Origin: Escherichia coli
Lineage (GTDB): Bacteria; Pseudomonadota; Gammaproteobacteria; Enterobacterales; Enterobacteriaceae
DNA length: 64,000 nucleotides
Direction: 5' to 3' (one strand)
Assembly: GCF_044647545.1 (NCBI RefSeq)
Contig: NZ_CP172818.1
Within the stretch, counting starts at the first letter, position 1. Every line of letters begins with the position of its first letter. Position numbers and translations under genes: made by a program. This document shows, one piece after another, positions 1-64,000 of this stretch. The notes under the pieces were generated by a model. The model was not told the DNA's origin. It was given only the letters and a program-made list of their open reading frames with translations, and ran no database searches.

Positions 1-60
1 TGCGATCTTTTCCTGTGTGGTACGCCGTCTGCGTTTCTCCGGCCCTAAGACATCAATCAT
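1..60 (-). CDS. insC: IS2 transposase OrfA (InsC), N-terminal 20 codons only; partial at window edge
   Basis: Minus-strand ATG at 58..60 reads MIDVLGPEKRRRRTTQEKIA to the window edge. Confidence 0.7.
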   Translation of the reverse strand, partial: MIDVLGPEKRRRRTTQEKIA

Positions 61-151
61 CTGTTCTCCAATGACTAGTCTAAAAACTAGTATTAAGACT
101 ATCACTTATTTAAGTGATATTGGTTGTCTGGAGATTCAGGGGGCCAGTCTA
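1..151 (-). mobile_element. IS2 left end (partial; element continues upstream of window), terminal inverted repeat ending at 151
   Basis: Reverse complement of 61..151 matches the IS2 left end as I recall it (TAGACTGGCCCCCTGAATCTCCAGACAACC...), followed by the insC start. Confidence 0.85.
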
Positions 152-206
152 AACCCCAGAACTTACTTATGCTGATTCCGGTGCGAAAATTGTTAATAAA
201 GGTACT
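152..206 (+). pseudogene. ydbA: 55-bp ydbA autotransporter fragment trapped between IS2 and IS30
   Basis: Reads in frame (…[15 protein letters not shown]) into the ydbA frame that resumes after IS30 once one copy of the CT duplication is removed. Confidence 0.6.
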
Positions 207-4400: not shown

Positions 4401-4924
4401 CGATTGCATTTGGCAACACGAACAAAACGGCTGATACCGACGTGAAACAGCAGTACCTGGAGTTCCGCAGCGAAGGGGCGAAGACTTTCGAACCGAGCGA
4501 AGGACTGAAGGTTACGCCATATGCGGGTGTAAAACTGCGTCACACACTGGAAGGTGGCTATCAGGAGCGCAATGCCGGAGACTTTAACCTGAATATGAAC
4601 AGTGGCAGCGAAACGGCGGTGGACAGCATCGTCGGGCTGAAACTGGACTACGCAGGTAAAGACGGCTGGAGCGCTAGCGCTACGCTGGAAGGCGGGCCGA
4701 ACCTGAGCTACGCGAAGAGCCAGCGTACGGCAAGCCTGGCAGGCGCAGGCAGTCAGCACTTTAACGTCGATGACGGTCAGAAGGGCGGCGGCATCAATAG
4801 CCTGACAAGCGTCGGCGTGAAGTACAGCAGCAAAGAAAGTTCGCTGAATCTGGATGCGTACAACTGGAAAGAGGATGGCATCAGCGATAAAGGCGTGATG
4901 CTGAACTTCAAGAAAACGTTCTAA
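1428..4924 (+). pseudogene. ydbA: ydbA C-terminal portion: autotransporter passenger repeats plus beta-barrel translocator; gene disrupted by IS2 and IS30
   Basis: Open frame runs from the IS30 junction with no start of its own; Gly/Asn/Thr-rich repeats and a C-terminal barrel ending in F; annotated ORF 1601..4924 is the internal Met-start part. Confidence 0.8.
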
Positions 4925-4944
4925 TTTTTAGCATGTGATACCTA

Positions 4945-4977
4945 AACCGCAACGCTGATACAGGTTGCGGTTTTTTA
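4945..4977 (+). terminator. Rho-independent terminator downstream of ydbA
   Basis: GC stem AACCGCAAC / GTTGCGGTT followed by a T6 run. Confidence 0.65.
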
Positions 4978-5131
4978 TTGCCGGATGCGGCGCTTGACGC
5001 GTTTTGTTTTGGTGTCTTCCAGGACAATAGAGCAACTCATCCAGTAATCTTGTTTACGCCTTCGCATTATTTAACTCTTTTCGTTTCTATACTGATTTTT
5101 CTGAATTCGTTTTATTACAGGGCAGGGTGCG

Positions 5132-5992
5132 ATGAGCAGCAATACATTTACTCTCGGTACAAAATCCGTTAACCGTCTTGGTTATGGCGCGATGCAACTG
5201 GCAGGTCCTGGGGTTTTTGGCCCCCCAAGAGATCGCCACGTCGCTATAACCGTGCTGCGTGAGGCGCTGGCATTGGGCGTCAATCACATTGATACCAGCG
5301 ACTTTTATGGTCCGCACGTCACCAATCAGATTATCCGCGAAGCGCTTTATCCTTACTCTGACGACCTGACCATTGTTACTAAAATTGGGGCGCGGCGTGG
5401 AGAGGACGCCTCCTGGTTGCCCGCATTTTCTCCGGCAGAGTTGCAAAAAGCGGTGCACGATAATCTACGTAATCTCGGGCTGGACGTACTGGATGTGGTT
5501 AACCTGCGCGTTATGATGGGGGATGGTCATGGCCCAGCGGAAGGATCGATTGAAGCCAGCCTGACCGTGCTGGCAGAGATGCAAGAACAAGGCCTGGTAA
5601 AACATATTGGCCTGAGCAACGTCACACCGACGCAGGTTGCAGAGGCGCGTAAGATTACCGAAATCGTCTGTGTGCAGAACGAATACAACATTGCTCATCG
5701 TGCTGATGACGCAATGATTGATGCTTTGGCTCGTGACGGCATTGCCTACGTGCCGTTCTTTCCGCTCGGGGGCTTTACGCCGCTGCAATCTTCAACGCTT
5801 TCCGATGTTGCTGCGAGCCTGGGTGCAACACCAATGCAGGTAGCGCTGGCGTGGCTGTTACAACGTTCACCGAATATTTTGTTGATTCCTGGAACATCTT
5901 CTGTTGCGCATTTACGGGAGAATATGGCCGCAGAAAAATTGCATCTTTCTGAGGAAGTGTTGTCTACGTTGGATGGTATTTCGCGAGAATAA
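5132..5992 (+). CDS. ydbC: Aldo-keto reductase family oxidoreductase
   Basis: 286-aa ORF with aldo-keto reductase motifs (…HIDTSDFYG…); Shine-Dalgarno-like site upstream. Confidence 0.85.
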   Translation: MSSNTFTLGTKSVNRLGYGAMQLAGPGVFGPPRDRHVAITVLREALALGVNHIDTSDFYGPHVTNQIIREALYPYSDDLTIVTKIGARRGEDASWLPAFSPAELQKAVHDNLRNLGLDVLDVVNLRVMMGDGHGPAEGSIEASLTVLAEMQEQGLVKHIGLSNVTPTQVAEARKITEIVCVQNEYNIAHRADDAMIDALARDGIAYVPFFPLGGFTPLQSSTLSDVAASLGATPMQVALAWLLQRSPNILLIPGTSSVAHLRENMAAEKLHLSEEVLSTLDGISRE

Positions 5993-6055
5993 CGAATATA
6001 CAAAAGGGAAAGATGCATTTCCCTTTTGTTTCTTTTTTAATGGCATGGAGTGCAT

Positions 6056-8362
6056 ATGTTTAAGCCCAGGATTTGCAGCTGGATAGGTTTACTTCCCCTG
6101 TTTATGCTGAGTCTTCCAGTACAGGCGGACCTTCGATGTGTTGCAAATGCAGTTGATATTGAACCATTTTTTTCTGCGGCTACCGCTGAAGATAAACAAC
6201 AAGTTGAACAAGCTATCAACAGTAGCGTGAATCTTGTCCCCTTCGGTTTATCTGCATCGGACTGGAAAGTGCATCGTGGCGATTTAGTGGTAGACGGTAA
6301 TATAGAGAGTAATCAAAAATTGATTGTTCTTGGCAATTTGACAGTCAAAGGTAATATTTCCACTTTCTCTCTTTCTAATCCATGGGTTATTCTCGGTAAC
6401 GTGACGGCAACGAATATAGTTACGGATTCACCACTGTTAATTACCGGTTCGATAAATGCAAGTGGACTGGTATTTATCGACTCATATTACGATAATCCGT
6501 CTACGATTAAGGGGAGTATTAATGCGCGTGGGATATTTATCAATGACATAATTGCACCTGTTGTTGCGTCTTCGACAAATAGTGAATTCATGGTCCGTGC
6601 GAGTGACAAAAATGACACTGAAAATGTCAAAAAAGCGCTGATGATAATAAATCCTGATGCATATTATTGGGATCTAATAAATGATGAAGATGCTCTGAAA
6701 GAAATTTTTAAGCGAAGCAATATTCGCATGGCAGGGAATGTCTGTAATCTGATGAAAAAAGAAGCGCTGTTTCGCCCTAAGCCTTCTCCTGAGTTAGTGC
6801 AGGAATTGCAAATGCTGGATGAAGGCAACGTTGCTGCATTTGAAGGACGAGATATTGCGACATTTGATCTTGCCATAATGCGAACTCTCCCAAGGCTTAA
6901 AGGAATTTCAGCTAACCTACGCAAACAACTTATTAATAGCAATGATGGACAAACGATTGAAAGTATGGCGAGATATATGCCTGACAATGAGATTCTGGAG
7001 TTGACCGATCAGCAATTGGGTTACCAGCCTGTTGTTCTGGGGTTGCTCGACCGTGAACCGCTCTCTGTCGAAATAATGACGCGAATGAGTCATCTACCTG
7101 ATGGTGTCGGTCCGTTGAATCTTGCGCTACGTGAAAATCTCCCTCTGGATATCGTCATGACTCTGGCGAAAAGAGATTGGGATATGATCATTCAGGAGCT
7201 TTATAAAGATGCGTGGTTATTGCCCGAATCCATTATTGATGGCTATATCCGCAGTGATGATTCCTCTATTCGTCAGGTCGGTGCTGGAGGACAACTCACC
7301 TACAATCAGGCAATGCAGTTGGCGAACGATTCATCAAACGATGTTGTCACAAGCTTAGCGTCAAAGCTGGCAGAGATGAAACACCATGGTCAATTGTTGC
7401 GGATGACGCCACAAGAGAGTGACAAAATAGCAGTATATTTATACCAAAAATTCGAGAATGACGATGATCTAATAGGTGCGTTATTTTTAGCGTTGCCAGA
7501 TAACTTACAGTTTAATTTTGTTAAAAGGATGGAGAAAAAATCCCCTGCCTACTTTTGCTGTCGGGATATGCAGGTAATTCACTCTGACGCTGCTTTACAA
7601 CGGTTATTGACACGTTTCAACGATCCTGAGGGGTGGAGTAATCTGGCGAAAAATCAGTATCTGAGTACGGCGATGAAACAAAAAATTTGGCATCGCGCTT
7701 TATCGCATCGAAAAAATAATCCGAAAGCAGATTCTGCAGCATATGAAACCAGCGCTGATATGATTTTGTCGGAGCTTATCAGCTACGGTGAAGTTGATGA
7801 CCAGATGCTATTAAATGCCGCCTCTCTGATACGTTCGGAAGGCTGGGACTTTTTAGAGAGTGCATTAGTTAGTTGGGATAATTTACCCGCTGTTGTCCTC
7901 AAGGAATTACAGCAAAATATGCCACGCAATGATATTTGGGCGAAGTTTTTTCTGAGGCAGGAAAACAGCTCTCGTGCGCAGGTTAACGAAGCGTTACGTG
8001 TTTATTATGCACTAGACCCCGATGCGTTAGCACAACTGGATGTACTGGCAAAACAACCGGATCGTATATGGTGGAGTTCGCTGGCGAAAAGCAATCTTAC
8101 ATTTTTCAAGTTCGGTGCACTTAACAATCGCCATACACCGTCTGCGGCACTGGCGGCAGAAATTGATCCCGAGTGGTGGATTGTGGCGATGAATAATCCC
8201 CGTTTTCCAGTTGATGTATTAAAGGCGAGGCTGAAACGTGATCCTTTGCTGGCGTTAGAGCTTGTTAAACCTGAACTGGATTTAGTCCGCCAGCTGGCGC
8301 TTAACGGTAAGACGCGCGCAATACGGGAACAAGCGATGAGAAAACTTGATGAGTTGTATTGA
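6056..8362 (+). CDS. ydbD: Secreted protein YdbD of unknown function (signal peptide, beta-helix-like repeats, C-terminal helical repeats)
   Basis: 768-aa ORF from the ATG at 6056 (track ORF begins at an upstream GTG, 6050); N-terminal signal peptide …LSLPVQA. Confidence 0.8.
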   Translation: MFKPRICSWIGLLPLFMLSLPVQADLRCVANAVDIEPFFSAATAEDKQQVEQAINSSVNLVPFGLSASDWKVHRGDLVVDGNIESNQKLIVLGNLTVKGNISTFSLSNPWVILGNVTATNIVTDSPLLITGSINASGLVFIDSYYDNPSTIKGSINARGIFINDIIAPVVASSTNSEFMVRASDKNDTENVKKALMIINPDAYYWDLINDEDALKEIFKRSNIRMAGNVCNLMKKEALFRPKPSPELVQELQMLDEGNVAAFEGRDIATFDLAIMRTLPRLKGISANLRKQLINSNDGQTIESMARYMPDNEILELTDQQLGYQPVVLGLLDREPLSVEIMTRMSHLPDGVGPLNLALRENLPLDIVMTLAKRDWDMIIQELYKDAWLLPESIIDGYIRSDDSSIRQVGAGGQLTYNQAMQLANDSSNDVVTSLASKLAEMKHHGQLLRMTPQESDKIAVYLYQKFENDDDLIGALFLALPDNLQFNFVKRMEKKSPAYFCCRDMQVIHSDAALQRLLTRFNDPEGWSNLAKNQYLSTAMKQKIWHRALSHRKNNPKADSAAYETSADMILSELISYGEVDDQMLLNAASLIRSEGWDFLESALVSWDNLPAVVLKELQQNMPRNDIWAKFFLRQENSSRAQVNEALRVYYALDPDALAQLDVLAKQPDRIWWSSLAKSNLTFFKFGALNNRHTPSAALAAEIDPEWWIVAMNNPRFPVDVLKARLKRDPLLALELVKPELDLVRQLALNGKTRAIREQAMRKLDELY

Positions 8363-8532
8363 ATAACAGCGTAATATTTTTTAACCCTTTGATTAATTGG
8401 GGATAATCATTCCTGACAGTGAGTCCCCAATACCTTGATATATTCTGAATTTTTAATGAAGCGGCGTGTTGCGATATCTCCATCAGGGGAATTGATGCAC
8501 CATAGCGCAAACCGAATTATCAAGGATTGATA

Positions 8533-9138
8533 ATGACGCTCTACCAGATAAAACCGCTCTTTCAGTCGCTGTTAAGGCCGACGATGTTTTGGCTTTATAA
8601 GCACCACGTTACAGCGAATCACATCACTCTTGCTGCACTGGCGCTTTCTCTTCTTACCGGATTGCTGTTGATGTTGGTGGCACAACCCATCCTCTTTTTG
8701 CTATTGCCTATCGTGCTTTTTATCCGTATGGCGCTCAATGCGCTGGATGGCATGTTGGCGCGTGAGTGCAATCAGCAAACACGTCTGGGGGAGATTTTGA
8801 ATGAAACTGGCGATGTTATTTCCGATATTGCGCTCTATTTACCGTTTTTATTTTTACCGGAAAGTAACCCATCACTCGTAATACTCATGTTATTTTGCAC
8901 CATATTGACTGAGTTTTGTGGTTTACTCGCGCAGACGATTAACGGTATTCGCAGTTTTGCCGGTCCATTTGGCAAAAGCGATCGCGCGTTAATATTTGGT
9001 CTGTGGGGGCTAGCCGTTGCCATTTATCCACAGTGGATGCAATGGAATAATCTTTTATGGGGCATTGCTTCAATTCTGCTTATCTGGACTGCGATTAATC
9101 GTTGTCGGAGTGTGCTCCTGATGAGTGCTGAAAGATAA
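8533..9138 (+). CDS. ynbA: CDP-alcohol phosphatidyltransferase family membrane protein
   Basis: 201-aa hydrophobic ORF from the ATG at 8533 carrying a D-G-x2-A-R…G…D-type motif; stop overlaps the ynbB start (TAATG). Confidence 0.8.
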   Translation: MTLYQIKPLFQSLLRPTMFWLYKHHVTANHITLAALALSLLTGLLLMLVAQPILFLLLPIVLFIRMALNALDGMLARECNQQTRLGEILNETGDVISDIALYLPFLFLPESNPSLVILMLFCTILTEFCGLLAQTINGIRSFAGPFGKSDRALIFGLWGLAVAIYPQWMQWNNLLWGIASILLIWTAINRCRSVLLMSAER

Positions 9139-10034
9139 TGATGGAAAAATCTCTGGCAACACTTTTCGCGTTGTTAATTTTAGCAACGCTGATAAACCGT
9201 TTTCGGGTATGGCGGTTACCGGAGAGAAAAGGGGATGAAGTTACATTACGTATTCGTACCTGGTGGGGCATCGTCATTTGTTTTTCACTGGTGATTTCAG
9301 GTCCACGCTGGATGACGTTGACGTTTTTTGCGCTGATAAGTTTTCTGGCATTGAAAGAATATTGTACGCTTATATCCGTACATTTTCCGCGTTGGTTATA
9401 TTGGGGTATTCCTCTTAACTATTTGCTTATCGGTCATAATTGCTTTGAGCTGTTTCTGTTATTTATACCTTTGGCTGGGTTTCTGATATTAGCCACCTGG
9501 CAAGTTTTTGTGGGTGACCCCTCCGGTTTTCTGCATACAGTGAGCGCCATTTTTTGGGGCTGGATAATGACCGTTTTCGCCTTGAGTCATGCCGCCTGGT
9601 TATTAATGTTGCCAACCATAAATATCCAGGGCGAGGCGTTACTGGTGTTATTTCTTTTGGCATTAACCGAGTCAAACGATATTGCACAGTATTTATGGGG
9701 AAAATCCTGCGGCAGAAGAAAAGTGGTCCCCAAAGTCAGCCCGGGAAAAACGCTGGAAGGTCTGGTGGGGGGCGTAATCACCACCATGATTGCGTCACTA
9801 ATTATTGGACCGTTGCTGACACCGCTAAATACATTACAGGCATTATTAGCGGGTTTGTTAATTGGTATTAGTGGTTTTTGCGGCGATGTAGTGATGTCAG
9901 CCATCAAACGAGATATTGGTGTTAAAGATAGTGGAAAACTATTACCAGGACATGGCGGACTCCTTGACAGGATTGACTCATTAATTTTCACCGCTCCGGT
10001 ATTTTTTTATTTTATTCGCTACTGCTGTTACTGA
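9138..10034 (+). CDS. ynbB: CDP-diglyceride synthetase (CdsA) paralogue, membrane protein
   Basis: 298-aa hydrophobic ORF with a CdsA-like C-terminal signature (…KRDIGVKDSGKLLPGHGGLLDRIDS…). Confidence 0.8.
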   Translation: MMEKSLATLFALLILATLINRFRVWRLPERKGDEVTLRIRTWWGIVICFSLVISGPRWMTLTFFALISFLALKEYCTLISVHFPRWLYWGIPLNYLLIGHNCFELFLLFIPLAGFLILATWQVFVGDPSGFLHTVSAIFWGWIMTVFALSHAAWLLMLPTINIQGEALLVLFLLALTESNDIAQYLWGKSCGRRKVVPKVSPGKTLEGLVGGVITTMIASLIIGPLLTPLNTLQALLAGLLIGISGFCGDVVMSAIKRDIGVKDSGKLLPGHGGLLDRIDSLIFTAPVFFYFIRYCCY

Positions 10035-10049
10035 AGGAAAATAGAGAAA

Positions 10050-13113
<3,064 letters not shown>

Positions 13114-34048: not shown

Positions 34049-34269
34049 ATTAACTGTAAAGGTTTCTCTTCTTTTTTCTTCAAATGCCAAAACCCTTATA
34101 ATCTCTCAATACTGTCGCTCCAAACCTACTCTTCTTTTCGCGTCCCAGTTATAGTTATTAACAATCTCTTCCCATCCATTCAACACACTCAAACGCAATA
34201 CATTAAGTATTTCCCTCATCAAAAATCTGATCGTATGTGACAAAGACCGTGAACACACAGGAAAACACA

Positions 34270-35450
34270 TGCCTTCCACGCCGATACGTTTCTTCACAGA
34301 CCAAAGTCATTTGCCTGTGAAACACTACAGCATTTAAATCCATTAGCCCGTGTCAAAGAGCGTGAAATGGCGCTTCCGGCGCATGTCGTTTCGTTTCAAT
34401 CTCTCTGGCACGTCAGAAGAGAATCATGAGCCGTAATAAATACATCCCTTACGGGAAAATGCTTCCTCTGTTGAGTGAAAAACGCCACGAAACCAATGCT
34501 AAAGATCGCCCTCACAGCCATTCAACACACTGAAAGACCTTGAGCGCTTAAAAAACTTCTCCAGAAGCCTGCTTTTCCCCGATCAAAAAGCGGGGACAGA
34601 AGATGCATTCGCTACCCGCAGGGCGTTAAGCTCGACAGGAAAACAGCCGTATTTTTCGCCGAAACTTGGCTGGATGCGCTACCGGAATAGCCGTCAGGTC
34701 ACGGGTGTGTGAAAAATGTCACTGTCAGCCAGTCCTGCGTAAGGTACATCAGTATCAGACTGAAAATGAAGTATCAACTCCGTTCACCCTTCAGCATCAA
34801 TGGTCGGCTGGAGCGCGGGCTAAACTCGCCACGCTGTCAGAGCAAGCTTTGACCTGAAACAGTTTTCAGAAAAACCAGAAGAAGCTGGCGAGACTTCAGC
34901 GACAGTTAAGCCGCAAGGTCAAATTCAGCAATAACTGGCAGAAGCAGAAACGCAAAATACAGCGACTGCATCCTGTACGCAAATATCCGCAGGGACTACC
35001 TTCACAAAGTCACAACGACCGTCAGCAAAAACCACGCAATGATAGTCATTGAGGATTTGAAGGTCAGCAACATGTCAAAGTCAGCAGCGGGTACGGTCAG
35101 CCAGCCGGGGCGCAATGTCCGGGCAAAATCAGGTTTAAACCGTTCGATACTGGATCAGGGCTGGTATGAAATGCGCCGCCAGCTTGAGTACAAGCACCTG
35201 GCGTGGCGGTCAGGTGCTTGCTGCCGCCAGCGTACACAAGCCAGCGTTGCGCGTGCTGTGGTCATACAGCGAAAGAAAATCGCCTGTCACAAAGTAAATT
35301 CAGATGCCAGCATGTGGATATACAGCGAACGCCGATGAAATGCCTCGTAACATTTTAGCGGCGGGGCACGCCGTTCTTGCCTGTGGAGAGATGGTGCATC
35401 AGCCGCTCGTTGAAGCAGGAACCCCCCGAAATGATTTAGCGACAGCCTGA
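34270..35450 (+). pseudogene. insQ: Decayed IS200/IS605-family (IS609-like) tnpB / insQ-type gene
   Basis: TnpB-like peptide segments (…KLGWMRYRNSRQVTGV…, …KKLARLQRQLSRKVKFSNNWQKQKRKIQRLH…, …MIVIEDLKVSNMSK…) lie in different frames with in-frame stops; no ORF over 99 aa on either strand. Confidence 0.65.
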
Positions 35451-35487
35451 ACGTAGCAGGGATCCACGTCCTTCAGGGCGTGAGGAT

Positions 35488-36663
35488 TCAATATCGGTTT
35501 CTGTCAGCGATTAAATTCAACACCACGTAACAAACGCCTCCGGCAATTAATCCCCAAAACGCAGAACCAATCCCGGCCAGCGTCAATCCACTTGCCGTTA
35601 CCAGAAATGCCACCACCGCCGCGTCGCGCTCACGCTCATTATGCAGCGCCTGATACAAACTGCCGCCAATGGTACTCAACAGCGCCAGACCTGCCAGCAT
35701 CTGGATCCAACTTACGGGCAGGGCAGCCATCATCCCGGTAATGGCACTACCAAACAGACCTGCGAGCAAATAGAAAATGCCTGCAACGGCAGCTGCCAGC
35801 CAACGTTGATCTTTATCCGGATGCGCTTCCGGGCTTTGGCAAATAGCCGCGGTGATTGCCGCAATACCGACGGAATAAACGCCGAAAGGGGAAAAAACCA
35901 GTGCCAGCAATCCAGTAAATACAATTAATGGCGAAACAGGAGCCGAATATCCGGCTGCTTTCATTGCTGCGATACCCGGTGCGTTTTGCGATGCCATCGT
36001 CACCAGAAAAAGGGGGAGTGCAACGCTCAGGCTGTGAGCAAACGAAAAATCAGGGCTAATATAAGTGGGGAGAACGGGTTTAAAGACAACATCAGTTGTG
36101 ACAACGTCACCTTGCGCGATAACGATCACGCCCCCAATAATCATCGCGGCAATTACCGCATAGCGCGGCGCAACGGCCCTGGTTGCCAGCCATACCAGCA
36201 ACATACTGCCACACAACGTAAATTGACCATCCAGGCTCGCAAACGCCTGTAAACCAAAGCGTAATAAAATCCCGGCAAGCATTGCCGCCGCAAGCGAGTG
36301 CGGAATAATGCGCATCAGACGAGCAAAGAGTCCCGTTATGCCGCAGAGGACTATTAACGCGTTGGTGACAATAAAAACGCCGATGGTTTCGTTAAGTGTT
36401 AGTCCCTGCAATCCGGTGACCAACAAAGCCGCGCCAGGCGTTGACCATGCGGTGAGAACAGGTACGCGATACCATAATGTCAGAGCCAGCGTACTGACGC
36501 CCATTGCCAGCCCCAGCGCCGTCATCCAGCCAGAGATTTGTGCAGTGGTGGCTCCGGCGACAATCGCTGCTTGCCAGATTATTGCCGCTGAACTGGCGTA
36601 GCCAATTAATACCGCCAGAAACCCCGCCAGTAGCGTGGGCGGAGGAATAGAAAACAGACGCAT
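35488..36663 (-). CDS. ydcO: BenE-family (benzoate-type) inner-membrane transporter
   Basis: 391 aa from MRLFSIPPPTLLAGF…; highly hydrophobic multi-pass protein. Confidence 0.8.
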   Translation of the reverse strand: MRLFSIPPPTLLAGFLAVLIGYASSAAIIWQAAIVAGATTAQISGWMTALGLAMGVSTLALTLWYRVPVLTAWSTPGAALLVTGLQGLTLNETIGVFIVTNALIVLCGITGLFARLMRIIPHSLAAAMLAGILLRFGLQAFASLDGQFTLCGSMLLVWLATRAVAPRYAVIAAMIIGGVIVIAQGDVVTTDVVFKPVLPTYISPDFSFAHSLSVALPLFLVTMASQNAPGIAAMKAAGYSAPVSPLIVFTGLLALVFSPFGVYSVGIAAITAAICQSPEAHPDKDQRWLAAAVAGIFYLLAGLFGSAITGMMAALPVSWIQMLAGLALLSTIGGSLYQALHNERERDAAVVAFLVTASGLTLAGIGSAFWGLIAGGVCYVVLNLIADRNRY

Positions 36664-53890: not shown

Positions 53891-54952
53891 ATGCATTTAC
53901 GTCATCTGTTTTCATCGCGCCTGCGTGGTTCATTACTGTTAGGTTCATTGCTTGTTGCTTCATCATTCAGTACGCAGGCCGCAGAAGAAATGCTGCGTAA
54001 AGCGGTAGGTAAAGGTGCCTACGAAATGGCTTATAGCCAGCAAGAAAACGCGCTGTGGCTCGCCACTTCGCAAAGCCGCAAAGTGGATAAAGGCGGCGTG
54101 GTTTATCGTCTTGATCCGGTTACTCTGGAAGTGACGCAGGCGATCCATAACGATCTCAAGCCGTTTGGTGCCACCATCAATAACACGACTCAGACGTTGT
54201 GGTTTGGTAACACTGTAAACAGCGCGGTCACGGCGATAGATGCCAAAACGGGCGAAGTGAAAGGCCGTCTGGTGCTGGATGATCGTAAGCGCACGGAAGA
54301 GGTGCGCCCGCTTCAACCGCGTGAGCTGGTAGCTGATGATGCCACGAACACCGTTTACATCACTGGTATTGGTAAAGAGAGCGTGATTTGGGTCGTTGAT
54401 GGCGAGAATATCAAACTGAAAACCGCCATCCAGAACACCGGTAAAATGAGTACCGGTTTAGCGCTGGATAGCAAAGGCAAACGTCTTTACACCACTAACG
54501 CTGACGGCGAATTGATTACCATCGACACCGCCGACAATAAAATCCTCAGCCGTAAAAAGCTGCTGGATGACGACAAAGAGCACTTCTTTATCAACATCAG
54601 CCTTGATACCACCAATCAGCGTGCATTTATCACCGATTCTAAAGCGGCAGAAGTGTTAGTGGTTGATACCCGTAATGGCAATATTCTTGCGAAGGTTGCG
54701 GCACCGGAATCACTGGCTGTGCTGTTTAACCCAGCGCGTAATGAAGCCTACGTGACGCATCGTCAGGCAGGTAAAGTCAGTGTGATTGACGCGAAAAGCT
54801 ATAAAGTGGTGAAAACGTTCGATACGCCGACTCATCCGAACAGCCTGGCGCTGTCTGCCGATGGCAAAACGCTGTATGTCAGTGTGAAACAAAAATCCAC
54901 TAAACAGCAGGAAGCTACCCAGCCGGACGATGTGATTCGTATTGCGCTGTAA
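53891..54952 (+). CDS. yncE: Periplasmic seven-bladed beta-propeller protein YncE
   Basis: 353-aa ORF with signal peptide (…SSFSTQAAEE) and repeating propeller blades. Confidence 0.8.
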   Translation: MHLRHLFSSRLRGSLLLGSLLVASSFSTQAAEEMLRKAVGKGAYEMAYSQQENALWLATSQSRKVDKGGVVYRLDPVTLEVTQAIHNDLKPFGATINNTTQTLWFGNTVNSAVTAIDAKTGEVKGRLVLDDRKRTEEVRPLQPRELVADDATNTVYITGIGKESVIWVVDGENIKLKTAIQNTGKMSTGLALDSKGKRLYTTNADGELITIDTADNKILSRKKLLDDDKEHFFINISLDTTNQRAFITDSKAAEVLVVDTRNGNILAKVAAPESLAVLFNPARNEAYVTHRQAGKVSVIDAKSYKVVKTFDTPTHPNSLALSADGKTLYVSVKQKSTKQQEATQPDDVIRIAL

Positions 54953-55033
54953 TAGATATGGCGAGGGTGAAAACGGAGAGACTTGCCTGACTTTTATCAC
55001 GCCGTATCCGGCACCTTCGTCAGTAATTTGAAT

Positions 55034-55060
55034 TTGCCCGGCACGCAGCCGGGCAATTTT
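55034..55060 (+). terminator. Rho-independent terminator after yncE
   Basis: Stem GCCCGG / CCGGGC followed by AATTTT. Confidence 0.5.
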
Positions 55061-55064
55061 GCAA

Positions 55065-56564
55065 TTAACTCGCCGTTTCAGGTTTAAACACAATTTCCTG
55101 TTTTTCTTCATCTTCCTCGACGACTGGCGCAGTGCTGTGAATTTCAGCAACGCGTTTGCGCACACCAAACCAGCCTATAACCAGCAGAATACCGATAATC
55201 GGCAGCGCCGCGATAGTATAAGTCCCGTTCGGGTAATCGAACGCCATCAGCACCAGAACACTCAGTAAAAACAGTAATGTCAGCCAGGAAGTGAAGGGCG
55301 CGCCAGGCAGTTTAAAACTGACATCCGCTGCTTTGCCTTCTTTAATCGCTTTACGCAGGCGCATCTGGCACACGATGATAAACGCCCATGAAGCGATGAT
55401 TCCCAGCGACGCGAAGTTCAACACAATCTCAAATACGCGCGACGGCACCAGATAGTTGAGGAATACGCCGACGACATACACAACCAGTGTCGCCAGAATC
55501 CCGGCATACGGCACATGCTGACGACTCATTTTCGCCATAAAACTCGGTGCGGAACCGCCCATCGCCATTGAGCGCAGAATGCGTCCGGTGCAGTACAGAC
55601 CTGAATTCAGGCTGGAGAGGGCAGCGGTCAGCACCACAATGTTCATAATGCTGCCGATATATGGCACACCCAGTTTAGAGAAAAACGTCACGAACGGACT
55701 TTGCCCCGCCTGATACGCGCTCCACGGCAATAACATAACCAGCAACACCACGGAGCCGACGTAAAACAGGCCAATACGCCAAATCACACTGTTAATGGCT
55801 TTAGGCACCATGGTCTGCGGATCTTTACATTCTCCGGCAGCTGTCCCCACCATTTCAATGGAGGCAAAAGCAAACACTACGCCCTGAATCAACACCAGCG
55901 CAGGCAGCAAACCGTGGGGGAAGAAGCCGCCATTATCGGTGATTAAATGAAAGCCAGTGGTGTTGCCATCCAGCGGCTGACCACTACCGAGGAACACTGT
56001 ACCCACGACCAAAAAGGTCACAATGGCGAGCACTTTAATAAGCGCAAACCAGAACTCCATCTCCGCAAACCATTTCACACCGATCATATTCATGGTGCCA
56101 ACGATGGTAAGTGCAGCGAGCGCAAAGACCCACTGCGGCACGCCGCCAAACGCACCCCAGTAATGCATATACAGAGCGACGGCGGTAATATCAACAATCC
56201 CCGTCATCGCCCAGTTGATGAAGTACATCCAGCCAGCAACATAAGCGGCTTTCTCACCCAAAAACTCACGGGCATAAGAGACAAAACTGCCACTGGAAGG
56301 GCGGTGTAGCACCAGCTCACCCAATGCACGCAGAATAAAAAACGAAAACAAGCCACAAATTAAATAAACCAGTGCCAGTGCTGGACCCGCCATTTGCAGT
56401 CGGGCTCCTGCACCTAAAAACAAGCCGGTGCCAATCGCGCCGCCAATGGCGATCATCTGTACCTGGCGATTGCCCATCGCTTTGTGATACCCCTCTTCGT
56501 GGGCATTAAGCCAGCGGCGTTTCGCGGCGTGTTGATCTGAAGTGTCGGTGTCGTGTTTACTCAT
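55065..56564 (-). CDS. ansP: L-asparagine permease (amino acid-polyamine-organocation family)
   Basis: 499 aa from MSKHDTDTSDQHAAKRRWLNAHEEGYHKAMGNRQVQMIAIGGAIGTGLFLG…; 12 predicted transmembrane segments. Confidence 0.9.
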   Translation of the reverse strand: MSKHDTDTSDQHAAKRRWLNAHEEGYHKAMGNRQVQMIAIGGAIGTGLFLGAGARLQMAGPALALVYLICGLFSFFILRALGELVLHRPSSGSFVSYAREFLGEKAAYVAGWMYFINWAMTGIVDITAVALYMHYWGAFGGVPQWVFALAALTIVGTMNMIGVKWFAEMEFWFALIKVLAIVTFLVVGTVFLGSGQPLDGNTTGFHLITDNGGFFPHGLLPALVLIQGVVFAFASIEMVGTAAGECKDPQTMVPKAINSVIWRIGLFYVGSVVLLVMLLPWSAYQAGQSPFVTFFSKLGVPYIGSIMNIVVLTAALSSLNSGLYCTGRILRSMAMGGSAPSFMAKMSRQHVPYAGILATLVVYVVGVFLNYLVPSRVFEIVLNFASLGIIASWAFIIVCQMRLRKAIKEGKAADVSFKLPGAPFTSWLTLLFLLSVLVLMAFDYPNGTYTIAALPIIGILLVIGWFGVRKRVAEIHSTAPVVEEDEEKQEIVFKPETAS

Positions 56565-56830
56565 TGCTCTCCCTGATTGCTTTAATGAAAAAGTCATATA
56601 AGTTGCCATGAACAATGTTTATTCATCCTGGCGATGATAGTTATCACCATTATTCTTTATGGGTATAAAACTATCGGCGCAGCATCCTACCCGTTATCGA
56701 TAAACGATGCAAAACATCCCCTTACAATCCTGAAGGGGAATAATACAACTGACGAAAAAATGACAAATCCTTTTGCTGGTTAACCTGTGTACTGTCCTAC
56801 ACTTAATCTTTAAAAGATTGTGAGGGGCAT

Positions 56831-57448
56831 ATGATTAAGGTGTATGGCGTACCCGGATGGGGCTCTACAATCAGTGAGCTGATGCTAACACTGGCTGATA
56901 TTCCTTATCAGTTCTTTGATGTCAGTGGTTTTGACCACGAGGGAACTTCACGCGAGTTATTGAAAACCCTGAACCCGTTGTGTCAGATTCCGACACTGGC
57001 GCTGGAAAATGACGAGATTATGACGGAGACAGCGGCGATTGCATTGATGGTTCTCGATCGTCGCCCGGACCTTGCGCCACCGGTTGGGCGCGCCGAACGT
57101 CAGCAGTTTCAACGGCTATTGGTCTGGCTGGTTGCTAATGTCTATCCAACATTCACTTTCGCCGATTACCCTGAGCGTTGGGCTCCTGACGCACCTGAAC
57201 AGTTAAAGAAGAATGTTATTGAATATCGAAAATCGCTTTATATCTGGTTGAATTCGCAGCTCACTGCTGAACCTTATGCGTTTGGTGAGCAACTAACGCT
57301 GGTGGACTGTTATCTTTGCACTATGCGCACATGGGGGCCTGGGCATGAATGGTTTCAGGATAATGCCACGAATATCAGTGCGATTGCTGATGCTGTATGT
57401 CAGTTACCGAAATTACAAGAAGTATTAAAAAGGAATGAAATTATTTGA
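56831..57448 (+). CDS. yncG: Glutathione S-transferase-like protein
   Basis: 205-aa ORF with thioredoxin-like N-terminus. Confidence 0.8.
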   Translation: MIKVYGVPGWGSTISELMLTLADIPYQFFDVSGFDHEGTSRELLKTLNPLCQIPTLALENDEIMTETAAIALMVLDRRPDLAPPVGRAERQQFQRLLVWLVANVYPTFTFADYPERWAPDAPEQLKKNVIEYRKSLYIWLNSQLTAEPYAFGEQLTLVDCYLCTMRTWGPGHEWFQDNATNISAIADAVCQLPKLQEVLKRNEII

Positions 57449-57523
57449 GTGGGATACCAGAAGATTATGTTATTTATTATTCAGTAACTTTATCCACAAT
57501 GATGGGCGTAATTAATTAAATTC

Positions 57524-57736
57524 ATGTTATGTTTTTTAATTTATATCACTCTCCCTTTCATTCAGCTTGTCTATTTCATTTCCTCTGAAAAGAAACTAAC
57601 TATTCACATTGTGCAGATGTTTCAGTTGTTATCACAGGTATTCTATAATCTCAAAATGTTTTTAATGATGGATATGCTCGGAGTTGGAGATGCAATTAAT
57701 ATTAATACAAATAAAAATATCCGGCAGGTATGCTAA
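57524..57736 (+). CDS. yncH: Small hydrophobic protein YncH (70 aa) in AT-rich DNA
   Basis: ATG-start ORF MLCFLIYITLPFIQLVYFISSEKK… in strongly AT-rich sequence; coding status uncertain. Confidence 0.5.
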   Translation: MLCFLIYITLPFIQLVYFISSEKKLTIHIVQMFQLLSQVFYNLKMFLMMDMLGVGDAININTNKNIRQVC

Positions 57737-58474
57737 AAGGATAAATGGCGTTCTCTGTATTTATTCGCAATTATCTGTAGGACAAATATGGAGAGCTTGA
57801 TGAGTCAGAGCTAAAACAGCAATTGATTAATAAACATGTTGATTTATTCAAGAAAATGGATGTATTTTAAATATTGATTCTTAATATAACCTAATCAATA
57901 GATTATCACGTGAGAGCTGCACATTATTGGAGGGGCAGGGGAAAACACCATTTTGGGAACAATGCATCAGGTACTCTTACCACTGAAGCAAGATCATCCG
58001 GGCACCAGGTGGTGGTGCAGTGCTTTGGAAATGGTCCCCTCGGGGGAGTTGTCATTATTTTCTATGCTATTTGCTTATTATATTCATCAGGTGAATTTAA
58101 TAAATTCCTAATTTGAAATATCCACTATTAAGCCAGTGTTTAACGACGTTAAGATGGCAATGTGCAGATCATGTTATCAGGGTGGGGCGGTAGCGTATAT
58201 TCCTTATACAAACCATCATTCATTTCAATGATTGTTATTGAATTATTTATTGTTGTGAATAAAAAGACATTATGAATATTGGTTTGACTTTGCATATCAG
58301 GTTTTTTATTACTCGCTGTAATGTACGAGCCTGTCGTGAATAACGTCGAGAACCCATCCGTTGCGTTTGTGATTATTTTGTTGACTAAACAGACACCCGT
58401 TTCTCTGAAGTAAAATCCCAGACTAAATCATCACATAACCATGACATTTTTCTGATATTCCCCGGTAACGCCAG

Positions 58475-60109
58475 ATGTCGACTCGCTTATCCACCCTCAG
58501 CCATACCAGTGAAGGCCACCGCGTGTCGGTCCACTACGGCTATGACGATAAAGGCCGCCTGACCGGCGAACGCCAGACGGTGGAGAACCCGGAGACGGGG
58601 GAACTGCTGTGGCACCATGAGACCGGACATGCGTACAACGAACAGGGGCTGGCAAACCGCGTCACGCCGGACAGTCTGCCGCCGGTGGAGTGGCTGACCT
58701 ACGGCAGCGGCTATCTTGCGGGCATGAAGCTGGGCGGGACGCCGCTGCTGGAGTTCACGCGCGACCGCCTGCACCGTGAGACGGTGCGCAGCTTCGGCAG
58801 CATGGCAGGCAGTAATGCCGCATATAAACTGACCAGCACATACACCCCCGCAGGCCAGTTACAGAGCCAGCACCTGAACAGCCTGGTGTATGACCGTGAC
58901 TACGGGTGGAATGACAACGGCGACCTGGTGCGCATCAGCGGCCCGCGACAGACGCGGGAATACGGCTACAGCGCCACGGGCAGGCTGGAGAGTGTGCGCA
59001 CCCTCGCACCAGACCTGGACATCCGCATCCCGTATGCCACGGACCCGGCGGGCAACCGGCTGCCGGACCCGGAGCTGCACCCGGACAGTACACTCACAGT
59101 GTGGCCGGATAACCGCATCGCGGAGGATGCGCACTATGTCTACCGCCACGATGAATACGGCAGGCTGACGGAGAAGACGGACCGCATCCCGGCGGGTGTG
59201 ATACGGACGGACGACGAGCGGACCCACCACTACCACTACGACAGCCAGCACCGCCTGGTGTTCTACACGCGGATACAGCATGGCGAGCCACTGGTCGAGA
59301 GCCGCTACCTCTACGACCCGCTGGGACGGCGAATGGCAAAACGGGTCTGGCGGCGGGAGCGTGACCTGACGGGGTGGATGTCGCTGTCGCGTAAACCGGA
59401 GGTGACGTGGTATGGCTGGGACGGAGACAGGCTGACGACGGTGCAGACTGACACCACACGTATCCAGACGGTATACGAGCCGGGAAGCTTCACGCCGCTC
59501 ATCCGGGTCGAGACAGAGAACGGCGAGCGGGAAAAAGCGCAGCGGCGCAGCCTGGCAGAGACGCTCCAGCAGGAAGGGAGTGAGAACGGCCACGGCGTGG
59601 TGTTCCCGGCTGAACTGGTGCGGCTGCTGGACAGGCTGGAGGAAGAAATCCGGGCAGACCGCGTGAGCAGTGAAAGCCGGGCGTGGCTTGCGCAGTGCGG
59701 GCTGACGGTGGAGCAACTGGCCAGACAGGTGGAGCCGGAATACACACCGGCGCGAAAAGTTCATTTTTACCACTGCGACCACCGGGGCCTGCCGCTGGCG
59801 CTCATCAGCGAAGACGGCAATACGGCGTGGCGCGGGGAGTATGATGAATGGGGCAACCAGCTTAATGAGGAGAACCCGCATCACCTGCACCAGCCGTACC
59901 GTCTGCCAGGGCAGCAGTATGATAAGGGAGTCGGGCTGGTACTTATAACCGTCACCGGTACTACGATCCGTTGCAGGGGCGGTATATCACCCGGGACCCG
60001 ATTGGGTTGAGAGGTGGATATGGATATGTATCAGTATCCGTTGAATCCCATACAAGTGATAGACCCAATGGGGTTAGATGCGATTGAGAATATCATAATA
60101 TCAGGCTAA
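58475..60109 (+). pseudogene. rhsE: rhsE remnant: C-terminal part of an Rhs core with a frameshifted tail
   Basis: GC-rich ORF 58475..60010 with YD-repeat content (…[12 protein letters not shown]…[12 protein letters not shown]…); the conserved end (…[17 protein letters not shown]… and DPMGL) continues in the two other frames; no N-terminal half upstream. Confidence 0.8.
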
Positions 60110-61204
60110 TTAATTTATGCCGTATCTGGTGTACCTGGATTGATTGCTGCAAACAGCATTACTAACAGTGCTTACCAGTTCGGTTATGATATGGATGCTA
60201 TTGTTGGCGGAAGCTCATAATGGGGCCGCCGATGCAATGAGACATATCGTCACTTGATGTGTCGAATGACTAAGACATTTGGATCAAACAATAGCTGACG
60301 TGATAGGAAAAATCATGAGGCGGCAGGGATAACAAGGTCAGCCAGCTAAAGAAAAGTAATCATGGATCTAAAAAATAACACTGTCGGTATTGCTTGTGGC
60401 GATTTTTGGCCAAATGTAGCGATGATGTATTGTAAAATATAACACTGGGAAAACTCTTCGGGTTAGATGGTATAAAAGCAGATAACTCCAATAAAAACAA
60501 AGCAAGGGAGTTTCAGACGCTTCAAATTATTAGAGGCAAACTTGTCATTTTTTTTAATTACCCTTTGTTTATTTGTTGTTTACAATCTTCTGGGTTTGAT
60601 AACAATTCAAATTCTTGATATTGTCATTTTATGGACATAAATACCTAAAGAGCGTTGAGATATCTTTCTGAAAAAAATATTATTTATAAAATAATTAATG
60701 ACCAAAAAATTAGTAGAGGGAATGGTCATTTTATAAGTATAATGGTTAATAATTACAGGACGCACTGTGGAGTGGTTGATAAACTTAATTTTTTCAATGA
60801 TATTCTTTATAGCGTGCGATTAAAAAACATTAAAGCAAACTTGCAGAATATGGAGTTCTGCGCTAAAAAATAATGCGTATTTTAGTGATAAAAACAAGAA
60901 GGCTAGTTATAAAATAATTAATTATGGAGAACTATCACGATGTTGATTATTATGATAACAATTTGAAAAATGAAGCTTTTTGACTGGATTGGTAAATGGT
61001 CATAATGAACAACACCAGAAAGTAGAAAAATATAAAATACATACAGAAGATACTAGAAGCAAGGGACGGGCAGGGCAATATTATGAAAATTGTGATGTAA
61101 AATCACGATTTTCATCTTGGCTTGAACGCTAGCAGGCTATTAAAATTTAACCTTTGGATAAATGGAAAAAGATAAAAAAGGACCAAGTGATATTTTAAGT
61201 TTGC

Positions 61205-62290
61205 TTGATTATATTTAGCTATCTCTATATACGACAACAAGGAAGCTTAAACATAAATCTATCCGCTATTTTGTTTCTCACCGTATGTGAGAATTGCGAG
61301 GCCCATGAGTGGCAGGAAATTGAAGATTTTGGACATGAAAGACTTGAATGGCTAAAGAAATATGGTGATTTTGATAATGGGATTGCGGTCGATGACACCA
61401 TTGCACGCGTTGTGAGTAACATTGACAGTTTGGCCTTTGGAAGATGTTTATTGAATGGATGCAGGAGTGCCATGAAATCACTGATGGTGAAATTATAGCA
61501 ATAGATGGAAAGACCATAAGAGGCTCCTTTGATAAGGAAAGAAAAGGAGCAATCCATATGGTGAGTGCATTCTCAACCAAATGGTGTTGTACTCCGGCAG
61601 GCGAAACGGAAGCCAAAAGTAATGAGATTACAGCCATTCCACAGTTGCTTAACCTACTGTATTTAAAGAAAATTTTGATAACCATCGACGCTATGGGCTG
61701 TCAGAAAGATATCGCTTCGAAGATTAAAAGATAAAAAAGCAGATTATCTTCTGGCAGAAAAGGCAATCAGGGGAAATTACATCATGCATTCGAGGAAAAA
61801 TTTCCTGTAAATGTGTTTTCTAATTATAGGCGATTCGTTTAGTACGCAGGAGATAGTCATGGAAGAAAAGAAACACGTTTTCATATTGTAGTAACGTAAC
61901 GCCTGAACTTTTGTGATTTTGAATTCAATGGAAGGGATTAAAAAAGCTTTGTGTAGCATTGTCATTCAGGCAGAAGAAAGAAGATAAATCAGCAGAAGGT
62001 GTAAGCATCCGATACTATATTTCATCAAAGGATATGGATGCTAAAGAATTTGCACATGCTATCAGAGCGCACTGGCTGATCGAGCACAGTCTTCATTGGG
62101 TGTTAGATGTAAAAATGAATGAAGATGCCGCCGGATAAGAAGAGGAAACGCAGCCTAAATAATATCTGGAATAAAGAAGATGGCACTGAATTTATTAAGA
62201 GATTGCAAAGACATTAAGGGTGAAGAGGAAAAGAAAGAAGGCTGCGTTAAACACAGGGAAAGATCATCAGAAGTTCACTTTTTGTACTAA
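61205..62290 (+). pseudogene. yncI: Degenerate H-repeat (ISAs1-family) transposase copy
   Basis: ORFs 61205..61498 and 61444..61734 plus downstream fragments align piecewise to the ydcC protein (…WQEIEDFGHERLEWLKKYGDFDNGI…, …IAIDGKTIRGSFDK…AIHMVSAFS…) with several frameshifts and stops. Confidence 0.65.
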
Positions 62291-62397
62291 ATAATTCGCA
62301 TTTTATGTTTAAAAATTGAGATATTCCTCATTACCTGAAGCTGTTTTTTATTGCTTATACATGATCAAATACTCCTTACATAATTAAGGAGAACAAA

Positions 62398-63533
62398 ATG
62401 GAACTTAAAAAATTGATGGAACATATTTCTATTATCCCCGATTACAGACAAGCCTGGAAAGTGGAGCATAAATTATCGGACATTCTACTGTTGACTATTT
62501 GTGCCGTTATTTCTGGTGCAGAAGGCTGGGAAGATATAGAGGATTTTGGGGAAACACATCTCGATTTTTTGAAGCAATATGGTGATTTTGAAAATGGTAT
62601 TCCTGTTCACGATACCATTGCCAGAGTTGTATCCTGTATCAGTCCTGCAAAATTTCACGAGTGCTTTATTAACTGGATGCGTGACTGCCATTCTTCAGAT
62701 GATAAAGACGTTATTGCAATTGATGGAAAAACGCTCCGGCACTCTTATGACAAGAGTCGCCGCAGGGGAGCGATTCATGTCATTAGTGCGTTCTCAACAA
62801 TGCACAGTCTGGTCATCGGACAGATCAGGACGGATGAGAAATCTAATGAGATTACAGCTATCCCTGAACTTCTTTACATGTTGGACATTAAAGGAAAAAT
62901 CATCACAACTGATGCGATGGGTTGCCAGAAAGATATTGCAGAGAAGATACAAAAACAGGGAGGTGATTATTTATTCGCTGAAAATGAAACCAGGGGCGGC
63001 TAAATAAAGCCTTCGAGGAAAAATTTCCGCTGAAAGAATTAAATAATCCAGAGCATGACAGTTACGCAATGAGTGAAAAGAGTCACGGCAGAGAAGAAAT
63101 CCGTCTTCACATTGTTTGCGATGTCCCTGATGAACTTATTGATTTCACGTTTGAATGGAAAGGTCTGAAGAAATTATGCGTGGCAGTCTCCTTTCGGTCA
63201 ATAATAGCAGAACAAAAGAAAGAGCCAGAAATGACGGTCAGATATTATATCAGTTCTGCTGATTTAACCGCAGAGAAGTTCGCCACAGCAATCCGAAACC
63301 ACTGGCACGTGGAGAATAAGCTGCACTGGCGTCTGGACGTGGTAATGAATGAAGACGACTGCAAAATAAGAAGAGGAAATGCAGCAGAATTATTTTCAGG
63401 GATACGGCACATCGCTATTGATATTTTGACGAATGATAAGGTATTCAAGGCAGGGTTAAGACGTAAGATGCGAAAAGCAGTCATGGACAGAAACTATCTG
63501 GCGTCAGTCCTTGCGGGGAGCGGGCTTTCGTAA
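62398..63533 (+). pseudogene. ydcC: H-repeat-associated (ISAs1-family) transposase, split into two frames in this sequence
   Basis: ORF 62398..63003 ([18 protein letters not shown]…) and ORF 63069..63533 are contiguous parts of one protein; the span is 1136 bp (not a multiple of 3), with the frame change near 62985..63003. Confidence 0.65.
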
Positions 63534-63912
63534 TCTTTCCCTGGAGTGGCAAAGAACTGGTGGTGAATAATCCCGTTATTAGCAGACTTTTAACAATATG
63601 ATTAAGCTGCATCTTAAGCGTCTCCAGAATGGACTTTTATTGGGGGTATTTACGGATAAAAATTTTTGTGAGGGGAAAAATAAATATAATGGGCGTTAAT
63701 AAATTGGCAAGCCGGGAATTTTTTTTTTTTTAATGGCATGTTGGCAAAAAATATATTCTGCAAGTTTTTTTTTTTGGCTTTTTTTTTAAAAGGGTGTAAA
63801 ACAAACCTGTACAAATTCAAGTAGGCATTATTGCCGTAAAAAAGCATCACCGGACACATAACATTCACAACGTGTGTTAATTTTACTGACATCTTTCAAA
63901 AGGAGCACAATC

Positions 63913-64000
63913 ATGCCGCACATAGACATTAAATGTTTTCCACGTGAACTGGACGAACAACAAAAAGCAGCACTTGCTGCAGATATTACCGACGTTATTA
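63913..64000 (+). CDS. pptA: Tautomerase PptA (4-oxalocrotonate tautomerase family), N-terminal part; continues past window end
   Basis: ATG at 63913 behind AAAGGAGC; reads [29 protein letters not shown], starting with the catalytic Pro typical of the family. Confidence 0.8.

Follow-up and report, generated by a model that had tools for sequence, protein, structure and literature searches.

Between yncH and pptA, the window (the whole 64,000-nucleotide stretch of Escherichia coli DNA analysed here) carries a GC-rich fragment of an Rhs core gene whose C-terminal continuation is scattered over several reading frames. The locus raises two questions: which element the fragment belongs to, and whether the scrambled tail records a biological process. 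An earlier note had read the tail as the relic of a toxin tip and the AT-rich DNA behind it as a possible seat of a displaced orphan toxin/immunity pair. We compared the locus with K-12, with other E. coli genomes and with metagenome contigs, and conclude that it is very probably a known RhsE element with an artefactually corrupted tail, a reading drawn from sequence comparison. The features discussed are collected in Table 1.

Table 1. Features of the RhsE locus and of the damaged patches in the window
Feature	Position	Strand	Basis or remark
rhsE', 511-aa ORF, Rhs core without N-terminus	58475..60010	+	NF041261 profile match
Deletion junction of the K-12-type RhsE remnant	58491..58492	.	Identity breakpoints against MS6198 and K-12
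Span of window-private damage	59918..62130	.	Alignment to K-12 and natural copies
Hyperconserved core/tip boundary motif PxxxxDPxGL	60047..60076	+	Letters intact; frame block and profile match
RhsE C-terminal toxin tip relic (DUF6973 in K-12)	60077..60533	+	At least 9 blocks in three frames
ydcD relic, gene in the immunity position	60517..61005	+	At least 5 frame switches; tblastn, profile match
yncO relic, small ORF in two frames	60920..61105	-	tblastn matches 61099-60968 and 60981-60931
ISAs1/H-rpt pseudogene, equivalent of K-12 yncI	61180..62290	+	Alignment to K-12
Second ISAs1 copy, ydcC position	62398..63533	+	ORFs of 201 aa and 154 aa
IS609 tnpA'/insQ island, damaged	34053-35491		Absent from MS6198
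Third private patch	63649-63800		18 AT-biased substitutions, 4 deleted bases; best match 95.2%

A truncated Rhs core at the K-12 RhsE locus

In the 511-aa ORF, the match to the NCBIfam RHS_core profile (NF041261) is confined to positions 734-1216 of 1261 (E = 0); the ORF therefore represents the C-terminal ~40% of an Rhs core, in agreement with the truncation proposed in the earlier note. Its score of 1055.8 bits lies below the curated cutoff of 2000; given this score and the partial profile coverage, the ORF does not qualify as a complete core with an N-terminal delivery region. The YD_repeat profile TIGR01643 is also matched. Rhs homology begins at ~58487-58492, directly after the intergenic DNA on the yncH side, and the ATG at 58475 lies inside former vgrG-upstream DNA. 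At the other end, the final ~27 codons, past ...QQYDK at ~59930, are out-of-frame read-through. The GC content is 0.64-0.66 over 58500-59850, compared to 0.27-0.30 at 60450-61050 and ~0.30 at 57450-57900. The description of a high-GC core between AT-rich flanks thus holds (64-66% against 27-40% GC), and this arrangement is the classical signature of Rhs elements (Jackson et al. 2009, PMC2935791).

The K-12 MG1655 locus could be aligned end to end, in the order ansP-yncG-yncH-rhsE'-ydcD-yncO-yncI (ISAs1 pseudogene)-ydcC (ISAs1)-pptA, a correspondence well beyond chance. Apart from one 1-nt indel near 58000-58250, the alignment is free of gaps over 54300-59917, across the junction, and it remains collinear to 63544. 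From 58492 to 59917, the window is 100% identical to K-12 rhsE, with zero differences. The K-12 gene is itself a pseudogene of 679 codons that matches RHS_core positions 734-1261, PF03527 and, in its tip, DUF6973. Judged by these alignments, the element is the already known RhsE locus of E. coli K-12, with which it shares the chromosomal position, the deletion junction, the gene order, the core and the tip/ydcD/yncO/H-rpt content. It differs in that the rhsE frame, ydcD and yncO are uninterrupted in K-12, in ~130 changes private to the window, and in the origin of its alleles: the tail resembles that of strain AH01, and the flanks are of ST648 type.

The left junction can be placed to the nucleotide. 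To its left lies yncH-vgrG intergenic DNA common to ST648-type genomes, and to its right lies mid-core rhs sequence. The 100% identity to MS6198, a genome of the ST648 type, stops at 58491, and vgrG in MS6198 starts 66 nt beyond this breakpoint. The ST648 allele is still present at 58490, and the junction itself is identical in K-12. No vgrG is found between yncH and the Rhs core in the window.

RhsE as the remainder of a vgrG-rhs island

The same locus takes several forms in E. coli. ST648-type genomes contain an intact vgrG, an ISAs1 copy, a gene for a 150-aa hypothetical protein and a frameshifted ISAs1, with no rhs. In ABW_A32, a 5' vgrG fragment is fused to a 2.6-kb 3' part of rhs, and ECJXMCRH7 carries an rhs remnant of 2.8 kb; among the strains compared, the shortest remnant is that of K-12 and the window. 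The islands of ABW_A32, ECJXMCRH7 and MS6198 share with the window the ansP-yncG-yncH genes on the left and ISAs1/pptA on the right, and the former two have the rhs tail, ydcD and yncO in common with it as well. In contrast to the window, these islands have retained vgrG, whole or in part, or a longer rhs remnant. Because one locus shows a series of different truncations across strains, RhsE is, on this comparative evidence, the remainder of a vgrG-rhs T6SS effector island. A deletion took away vgrG together with the initial ~58% of the rhs core, and it left the 3' GC-rich core, the PxxxxDPxGL boundary, the AT-rich DUF6973 tip, ydcD, yncO and the ISAs1/H-rpt copies.

In Rhs toxins, a YD-repeat shell encloses the tip, VgrG and the T6SS deliver it, and the product of a downstream gene protects siblings (PMC2935791; PMC8765631). 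By analogy with this family, an intact RhsE would act like any other Rhs polymorphic toxin. The remnant, even in K-12, would be an undeliverable orphan, since it lacks both the N-terminal delivery domain and vgrG. Orphan rhs tips have been described in Serratia marcescens and E. coli clade IV (Jackson et al. 2009, PMC2935791) and in Salmonella (PMC7043789). Like the window, they feature a short GC-rich core fragment that ends in the boundary motif and is followed by an AT-rich tip, with a small gene behind it, and they are silent for want of delivery parts. Unlike them, the window contains neither an upstream full-length rhs nor a stack of alternative tips, and its fragment stems from an upstream deletion rather than from C-terminal displacement.

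A toxin tip scattered over three frames

Past the core, K-12 RhsE can be recovered from the window only as exact peptide blocks in changing frames. Residues 406-477 are read in frame 2, residues 492-510 in frame 1 and residues 513-573 again in frame 2. The last of these blocks holds the boundary motif and, at 60110-60211, the peptide ...LIYAVSGVPGLIAANSITNSAYQFGYDMDAIVGG, followed by a stop at 60218-60220. Behind this block, shorter RhsE blocks switch among frames 0, 2 and 1 as far as 60533, which brings the total to at least 10 frame switches across ~200 codons of the RhsE C-terminal region. The earlier note had placed a three-frame spread of the C-terminus within 60010..60109; the three frames are real, but the third appears first at 60213. 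The boundary-motif fragment matches RHS_core positions 1243-1261 and is cut off from the core ORF by two net frameshifts and the stop at 60008-60010.

The stop-interrupted peptide LIYAVSG...IVGG, previously suggested to be a toxin-tip relic, proved to be just that: the K-12 tip, whose stop codon corresponds to 60531-60533 of the window, matches Pfam DUF6973 (E 5.7e-11). With three frames and stops, no translatable AT-rich tip exists in the window. The only lead to a toxic activity of the tip is a weak sequence match (E 0.16) to PDB 9uu0, a T6SS effector of Bacteroides fragilis. The relatives retrieved in a protein search were E. coli sequences only, and a literature search on DUF6973 returned nothing specific.

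Conserved peptide blocks that survive in several frames could in principle be joined by programmed frameshifting or be part of a phase-variable tip, but their bare survival is all that points to such functional frame changes. The switches, at least 10 in ~200 codons, mostly lack a slippery or repeat context, stops interrupt the frames, the ydcD start codon is lost, and the damage goes on through intergenic DNA and the IS pseudogene. We regard a functional explanation as vanishingly improbable.

Downstream genes

The DNA behind the tip contains only short ORFs, as had been noted. The one singled out earlier, a 72-aa ORF at 60655-60873 in the position of an immunity gene, is a fragment of ydcD: it corresponds to YdcD residues ~45-114, the middle of the gene, and matches NF050020 (YdcD_fam) over profile positions 47-117 (E 6.8e-26). 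The 160-aa YdcD of K-12 both matches and defines this family profile; its solved structure was deposited under the name "Uncharacterized protein YdcD" (PDB 8wj5). A private C at 60518 turns the ATG start of the ydcD relic into ACG. The position of ydcD makes it the presumed immunity gene for the RhsE tip; our search of the literature on RhsE/YdcD function found no paper in which YdcD neutralises RhsE-CT (residues ~530-678 of the K-12 protein).

Next to ydcD and the yncO relic lie two ISAs1/H-rpt copies. The first, equivalent to yncI, is frameshifted already in K-12 and bears additional damage in the window up to 62129. The second is broken into two ORFs of 201 aa and 154 aa, the very split seen in ST648-type genomes, and 62254-63648 is 100% identical to MS6198; identical copies of the two ORFs elsewhere carry PF13808 and PF01609. 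A tblastn search with K-12 RhsE against 58400-61300 revealed no second core or tip fragment. We therefore reject an additional displaced orphan toxin/immunity pair, as the earlier note had envisaged: what lies downstream is ydcD, yncO and the two ISAs1/H-rpt copies.

Damage private to the window

Within the damaged span, we counted ~63 substitutions (35 transitions and 28 transversions) along with 32 insertion and 37 deletion events of 1-3 nt each, a ratio of indel events to substitutions of ~1.1 : 1. Two stretches of ~100 nt (60110-60210 and 60670-60770) are free of damage; otherwise it runs unchanged through intergenic DNA and the IS pseudogene. Only ~40% of the tail indels lie in a homopolymer context, and a homopolymer-type sequencing error (454, Ion Torrent or nanopore consensus) was rejected as the sole cause on this ground. 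Copying from ISAs1 paralogues, through mis-mapped reads or gene conversion, was likewise rejected as the source of the yncI changes: 5 of 58 match the paralogues examined.

The module is otherwise well represented and nearly invariant. Among 5,426 complete E. coli genomes, 2,434 carry the region, and the best identity to 59900-62150 is 94.0%. Compared to K-12, the tail is 93.6% identical, with 62 mismatches and 70 gap openings. We collected 56 natural copies, namely AH01 and 55 metagenome contigs that contain a canonical 36-mer of this stretch. Their identity to K-12 ranges from 98.6 to 100%, and none exceeds 11 mismatches or 6 gap openings; over the pooled 103 kb, the mismatches number 220 and the gap openings 38. 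A 37-mer of the window from the damaged part of the same stretch had no exact match among the metagenome contigs or the GTDB-representative contigs searched; an example k-mer from the private stretches of the window is TTGAGAGGTGGATATGGATATGTATCAGTATCCGTTG. Look-ups of the exact proteins encoded by the 511-aa ORF and by a 96-aa ORF within the damage gave no match. The literature describes rhs tips as well conserved and free of rapid divergence (Jackson et al., PMC2935791).

The allele beneath the noise can still be recognized. The module occupies different chromosomal sites in K-12 and AH01, yet only 12 positions of the tail distinguish the two; the window follows AH01 at 9 of these 12 diagnostic sites, some of which are unique to AH01 among the copies compared. 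The switch from a K-12-type to an AH01-type allele falls between 59908 and 59918, which is the exact onset of the noise.

Two further patches show private damage. In the IS609 island, we found 69 deletion events and zero insertions, and the lost bases comprise 42 G, 28 T, 6 A and 4 C. Beneath the deletions lies a natural allele that is not that of K-12 and differs by 12 substitutions from strain EC21Z-078; the best E. coli match of the island is 92.5%. The segment 34053-34377 is a 324/325 subsequence of 569 nt of the natural allele, compared to 82% for shuffled controls; 43% of the bases have therefore simply been dropped. The third patch is the short one at the right end of the window (Table 1).

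Could these changes be genuine, strain-specific pseudogene decay, in which the tip, ydcD, yncO and yncI of a useless element gained frameshifts and substitutions? The damaged genes are dispensable, the gene content fits a decaying orphan module, and single natural frameshifts are known in it: ydcD is naturally frameshifted in AH01, and the natural tip variants P0018 and P0019, of 144 aa, each contain one. Decay would have to account, however, for ~130 changes in 2.2 kb next to none, relative to other genomes, in the adjacent 1.4-kb core and in ~50 kb of flank, and for an indel-to-substitution ratio of ~1.1:1, whereas the natural copies have 38 to 220. Transitions are about as frequent as transversions, none of the changes occurs in the other genomes or metagenomes searched, and two unrelated patches, one with nothing but deletions, carry damage that is just as private. 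We consider natural decay unlikely, and the scrambling is no evidence for it: the changes are private to the window, and their profile is error-like.

The sharp edges of the damaged span, and the coincidence of its start with the allele switch, would also be expected if the tail had been imported by recombination from an unsampled, long-diverged lineage with a long-decaying module. The template, however, is a modern E. coli allele, AH01-like at most diagnostic sites, rather than that of an ancient lineage. Long divergence would have produced mostly substitutions with an excess of transitions, not an equal share of indels, and the protein search gave no relatives of the tip outside E. coli. Such an import seems very unlikely.

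A composite window

In both stretches that were compared, 1-49580 and 54300-64000, the window keeps the gene order of K-12, yet most of its sequence is not that of K-12. The segments 4916-34052, 35492-58491, 62254-63648 and 63801-64000 are 100% identical to ST648-type DNA (MS6198), with one mismatch in total, and ~50 kb of flank is identical to ST648-type genomes. Positions 1-4915, in turn, are 100% identical to the K-12-specific ydbA::IS30::IS2 block. By its pattern of identities, the window is a composite, with the gene order of K-12 and ST648-type sequence wherever the two share DNA. Natural recombination between K-12 and ST648 was rejected as the source of this mosaic: ST648 alleles are still present at 34051 and 58490, 1-2 bp short of the island borders, and switches this close to the borders leave no homology tract.

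The scrambled tail most likely stems from how the sequence was built, not from biology. The observed pattern would result from a consensus, reference-guided or drawn from mixed strains, in which some patches had poor support, or from corruption in silico, and a consensus built on a K-12 reference or a mixed-strain assembly would fit both the mosaic and the dropped bases. Noisy assemblies do produce such patterns: P0027, a short Logan contig, is a noisy copy of the same tip with multiple frameshifts. For corruption speak the private damage, the near-invariance of natural copies, the error-like profile of the changes, the clean neighbouring sequence, the two other damaged patches, the mosaic and the coincident boundaries. 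Against it count the error profiles, which differ among the three patches, the uneven spread of the damage with its two clean stretches, the small share of yncI changes that ISAs1 paralogues account for, and the random insertions, which a plain K-12 consensus alone leaves unexplained. Such a consensus also fails to explain the AH01-like tail template, because MS6198, the closest relative examined, has no AH01-like rhs tail/ydcD module at its T6SS-1/yafV locus, a possible source of template reads. On balance, we still favour the artefactually corrupted RhsE element, and the caveat of the earlier note, to exclude assembly indels, is the right one. If K-12 served as the backbone of the consensus, the real organism, like its closest relatives, probably has vgrG-ISAs1 here. 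The organism from which most of the sequence derives may lack the rhsE block at this locus.

The damage might alternatively be real and reflect a lineage-specific process that sprays small indels and substitutions on recently acquired AT-rich islands and leaves the core genome untouched. We hold this to be highly improbable; if true, it would represent localised hypermutation or inactivation of foreign DNA, here the rhs tip and immunity gene, IS609 and an intergenic insert.

Implications

The practical outcome is about the quality of the data: at least three patches of the composite window are corrupted, and apparent pseudogene decay, frameshifts or novel short ORFs in 34053-35491, 59918-62130 and 63649-63800 should not be read as biology. 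The locus adds little to the biology itself, since earlier work has long covered RhsE and its tip as well as ydcD and the H-rpt copies. The strain comparison also traces a series of deletions that struck the vgrG-rhsE island independently in different E. coli strains, and this series explains the origin of the K-12 remnant.

Mosaic structure and private changes of the window

The window as a whole is a mosaic, with the gene order of K-12 and the sequence of ST648. Its first 4.9 kb (1-4915) match the ydbA::IS30::IS2 arrangement specific to K-12 at 100% identity, its shared backbone is 100% ST648-type, and the switch points coincide with island borders.

Besides the tail of the RhsE element, two stretches carry changes that are private to the window. 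The IS200/IS605-type element has sustained 69 deletion events and no insertions, with a bias to G and T, and the deletion density climbs to 43% at its left end; its top E. coli match is 92.5%. The spacer patch, the third private patch, differs from ST648-type genomes by 18 substitutions, mostly G/C-to-A/T, and four deleted bases, and its top match among 5,426 genomes is 95.2%. Apart from these changes, the ST648-type genomes are identical in sequence here.

In contrast to the frameshifts in the tail of the RhsE element, the frameshift that splits the ISAs1 copy at the ydcC position is natural: many ST648-type genomes encode precisely this 201-aa product (122 index blocks).

Coordinates of the features discussed
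Feature	Sequence	Position
IS200/IS605-type element (tnpA remnant and insQ/TnpB); K-12 counterpart between ydcL and ydcO	Window	34053-35491
ISAs1 copy, ydcC position, split into 201-aa and 154-aa ORFs	Window	62398-63533
Third private patch, spacer from ISAs1 copy to pptA	Window	63649-63800
K-12 ydcD	L001, K-12	6208-6687
Intact vgrG without rhs	L002, MS6198	4201-6309
Tip-ydcD-yncO-ISAs1 module	L004, AH01	6608-7091
vgrG 5' fragment fused to rhs 3' part	L005, ABW_A32	6957-10831
2.8-kb rhs remnant	L006, ECJXMCRH7	6898-9729

The tip module and the vgrG-rhsE island in other strains

At the T6SS-1/yafV locus of strain AH01, the same tip-ydcD-yncO-ISAs1 module lies downstream of a different rhs core, indicating that the tip module moves between rhs loci. 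Such movement has already been described for clade I tips. The ydcD of AH01 carries one natural frameshift. The RhsE tip/ydcD junction has a further copy in public data, protein P0027 (Logan contig, 942 nt). This copy contains many frameshifts; its source is a short read-archive assembly, and it is an independent case of noisy assemblies yielding scrambled versions of this module.

The structure of K-12 YdcD has been solved (PDB 8wj5), still under the label "uncharacterized". The K-12 RhsE tip (residues ~530-678) has a weak sequence match (E 0.16) to the structure of a Bacteroides fragilis T6SS effector (9uu0), which may provide a lead to the activity of DUF6973.

Across E. coli strains, the vgrG-rhsE island has been truncated independently. 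Taken together, the truncations in ABW_A32, ECJXMCRH7 and MS6198 show the route by which the K-12 remnant arose.
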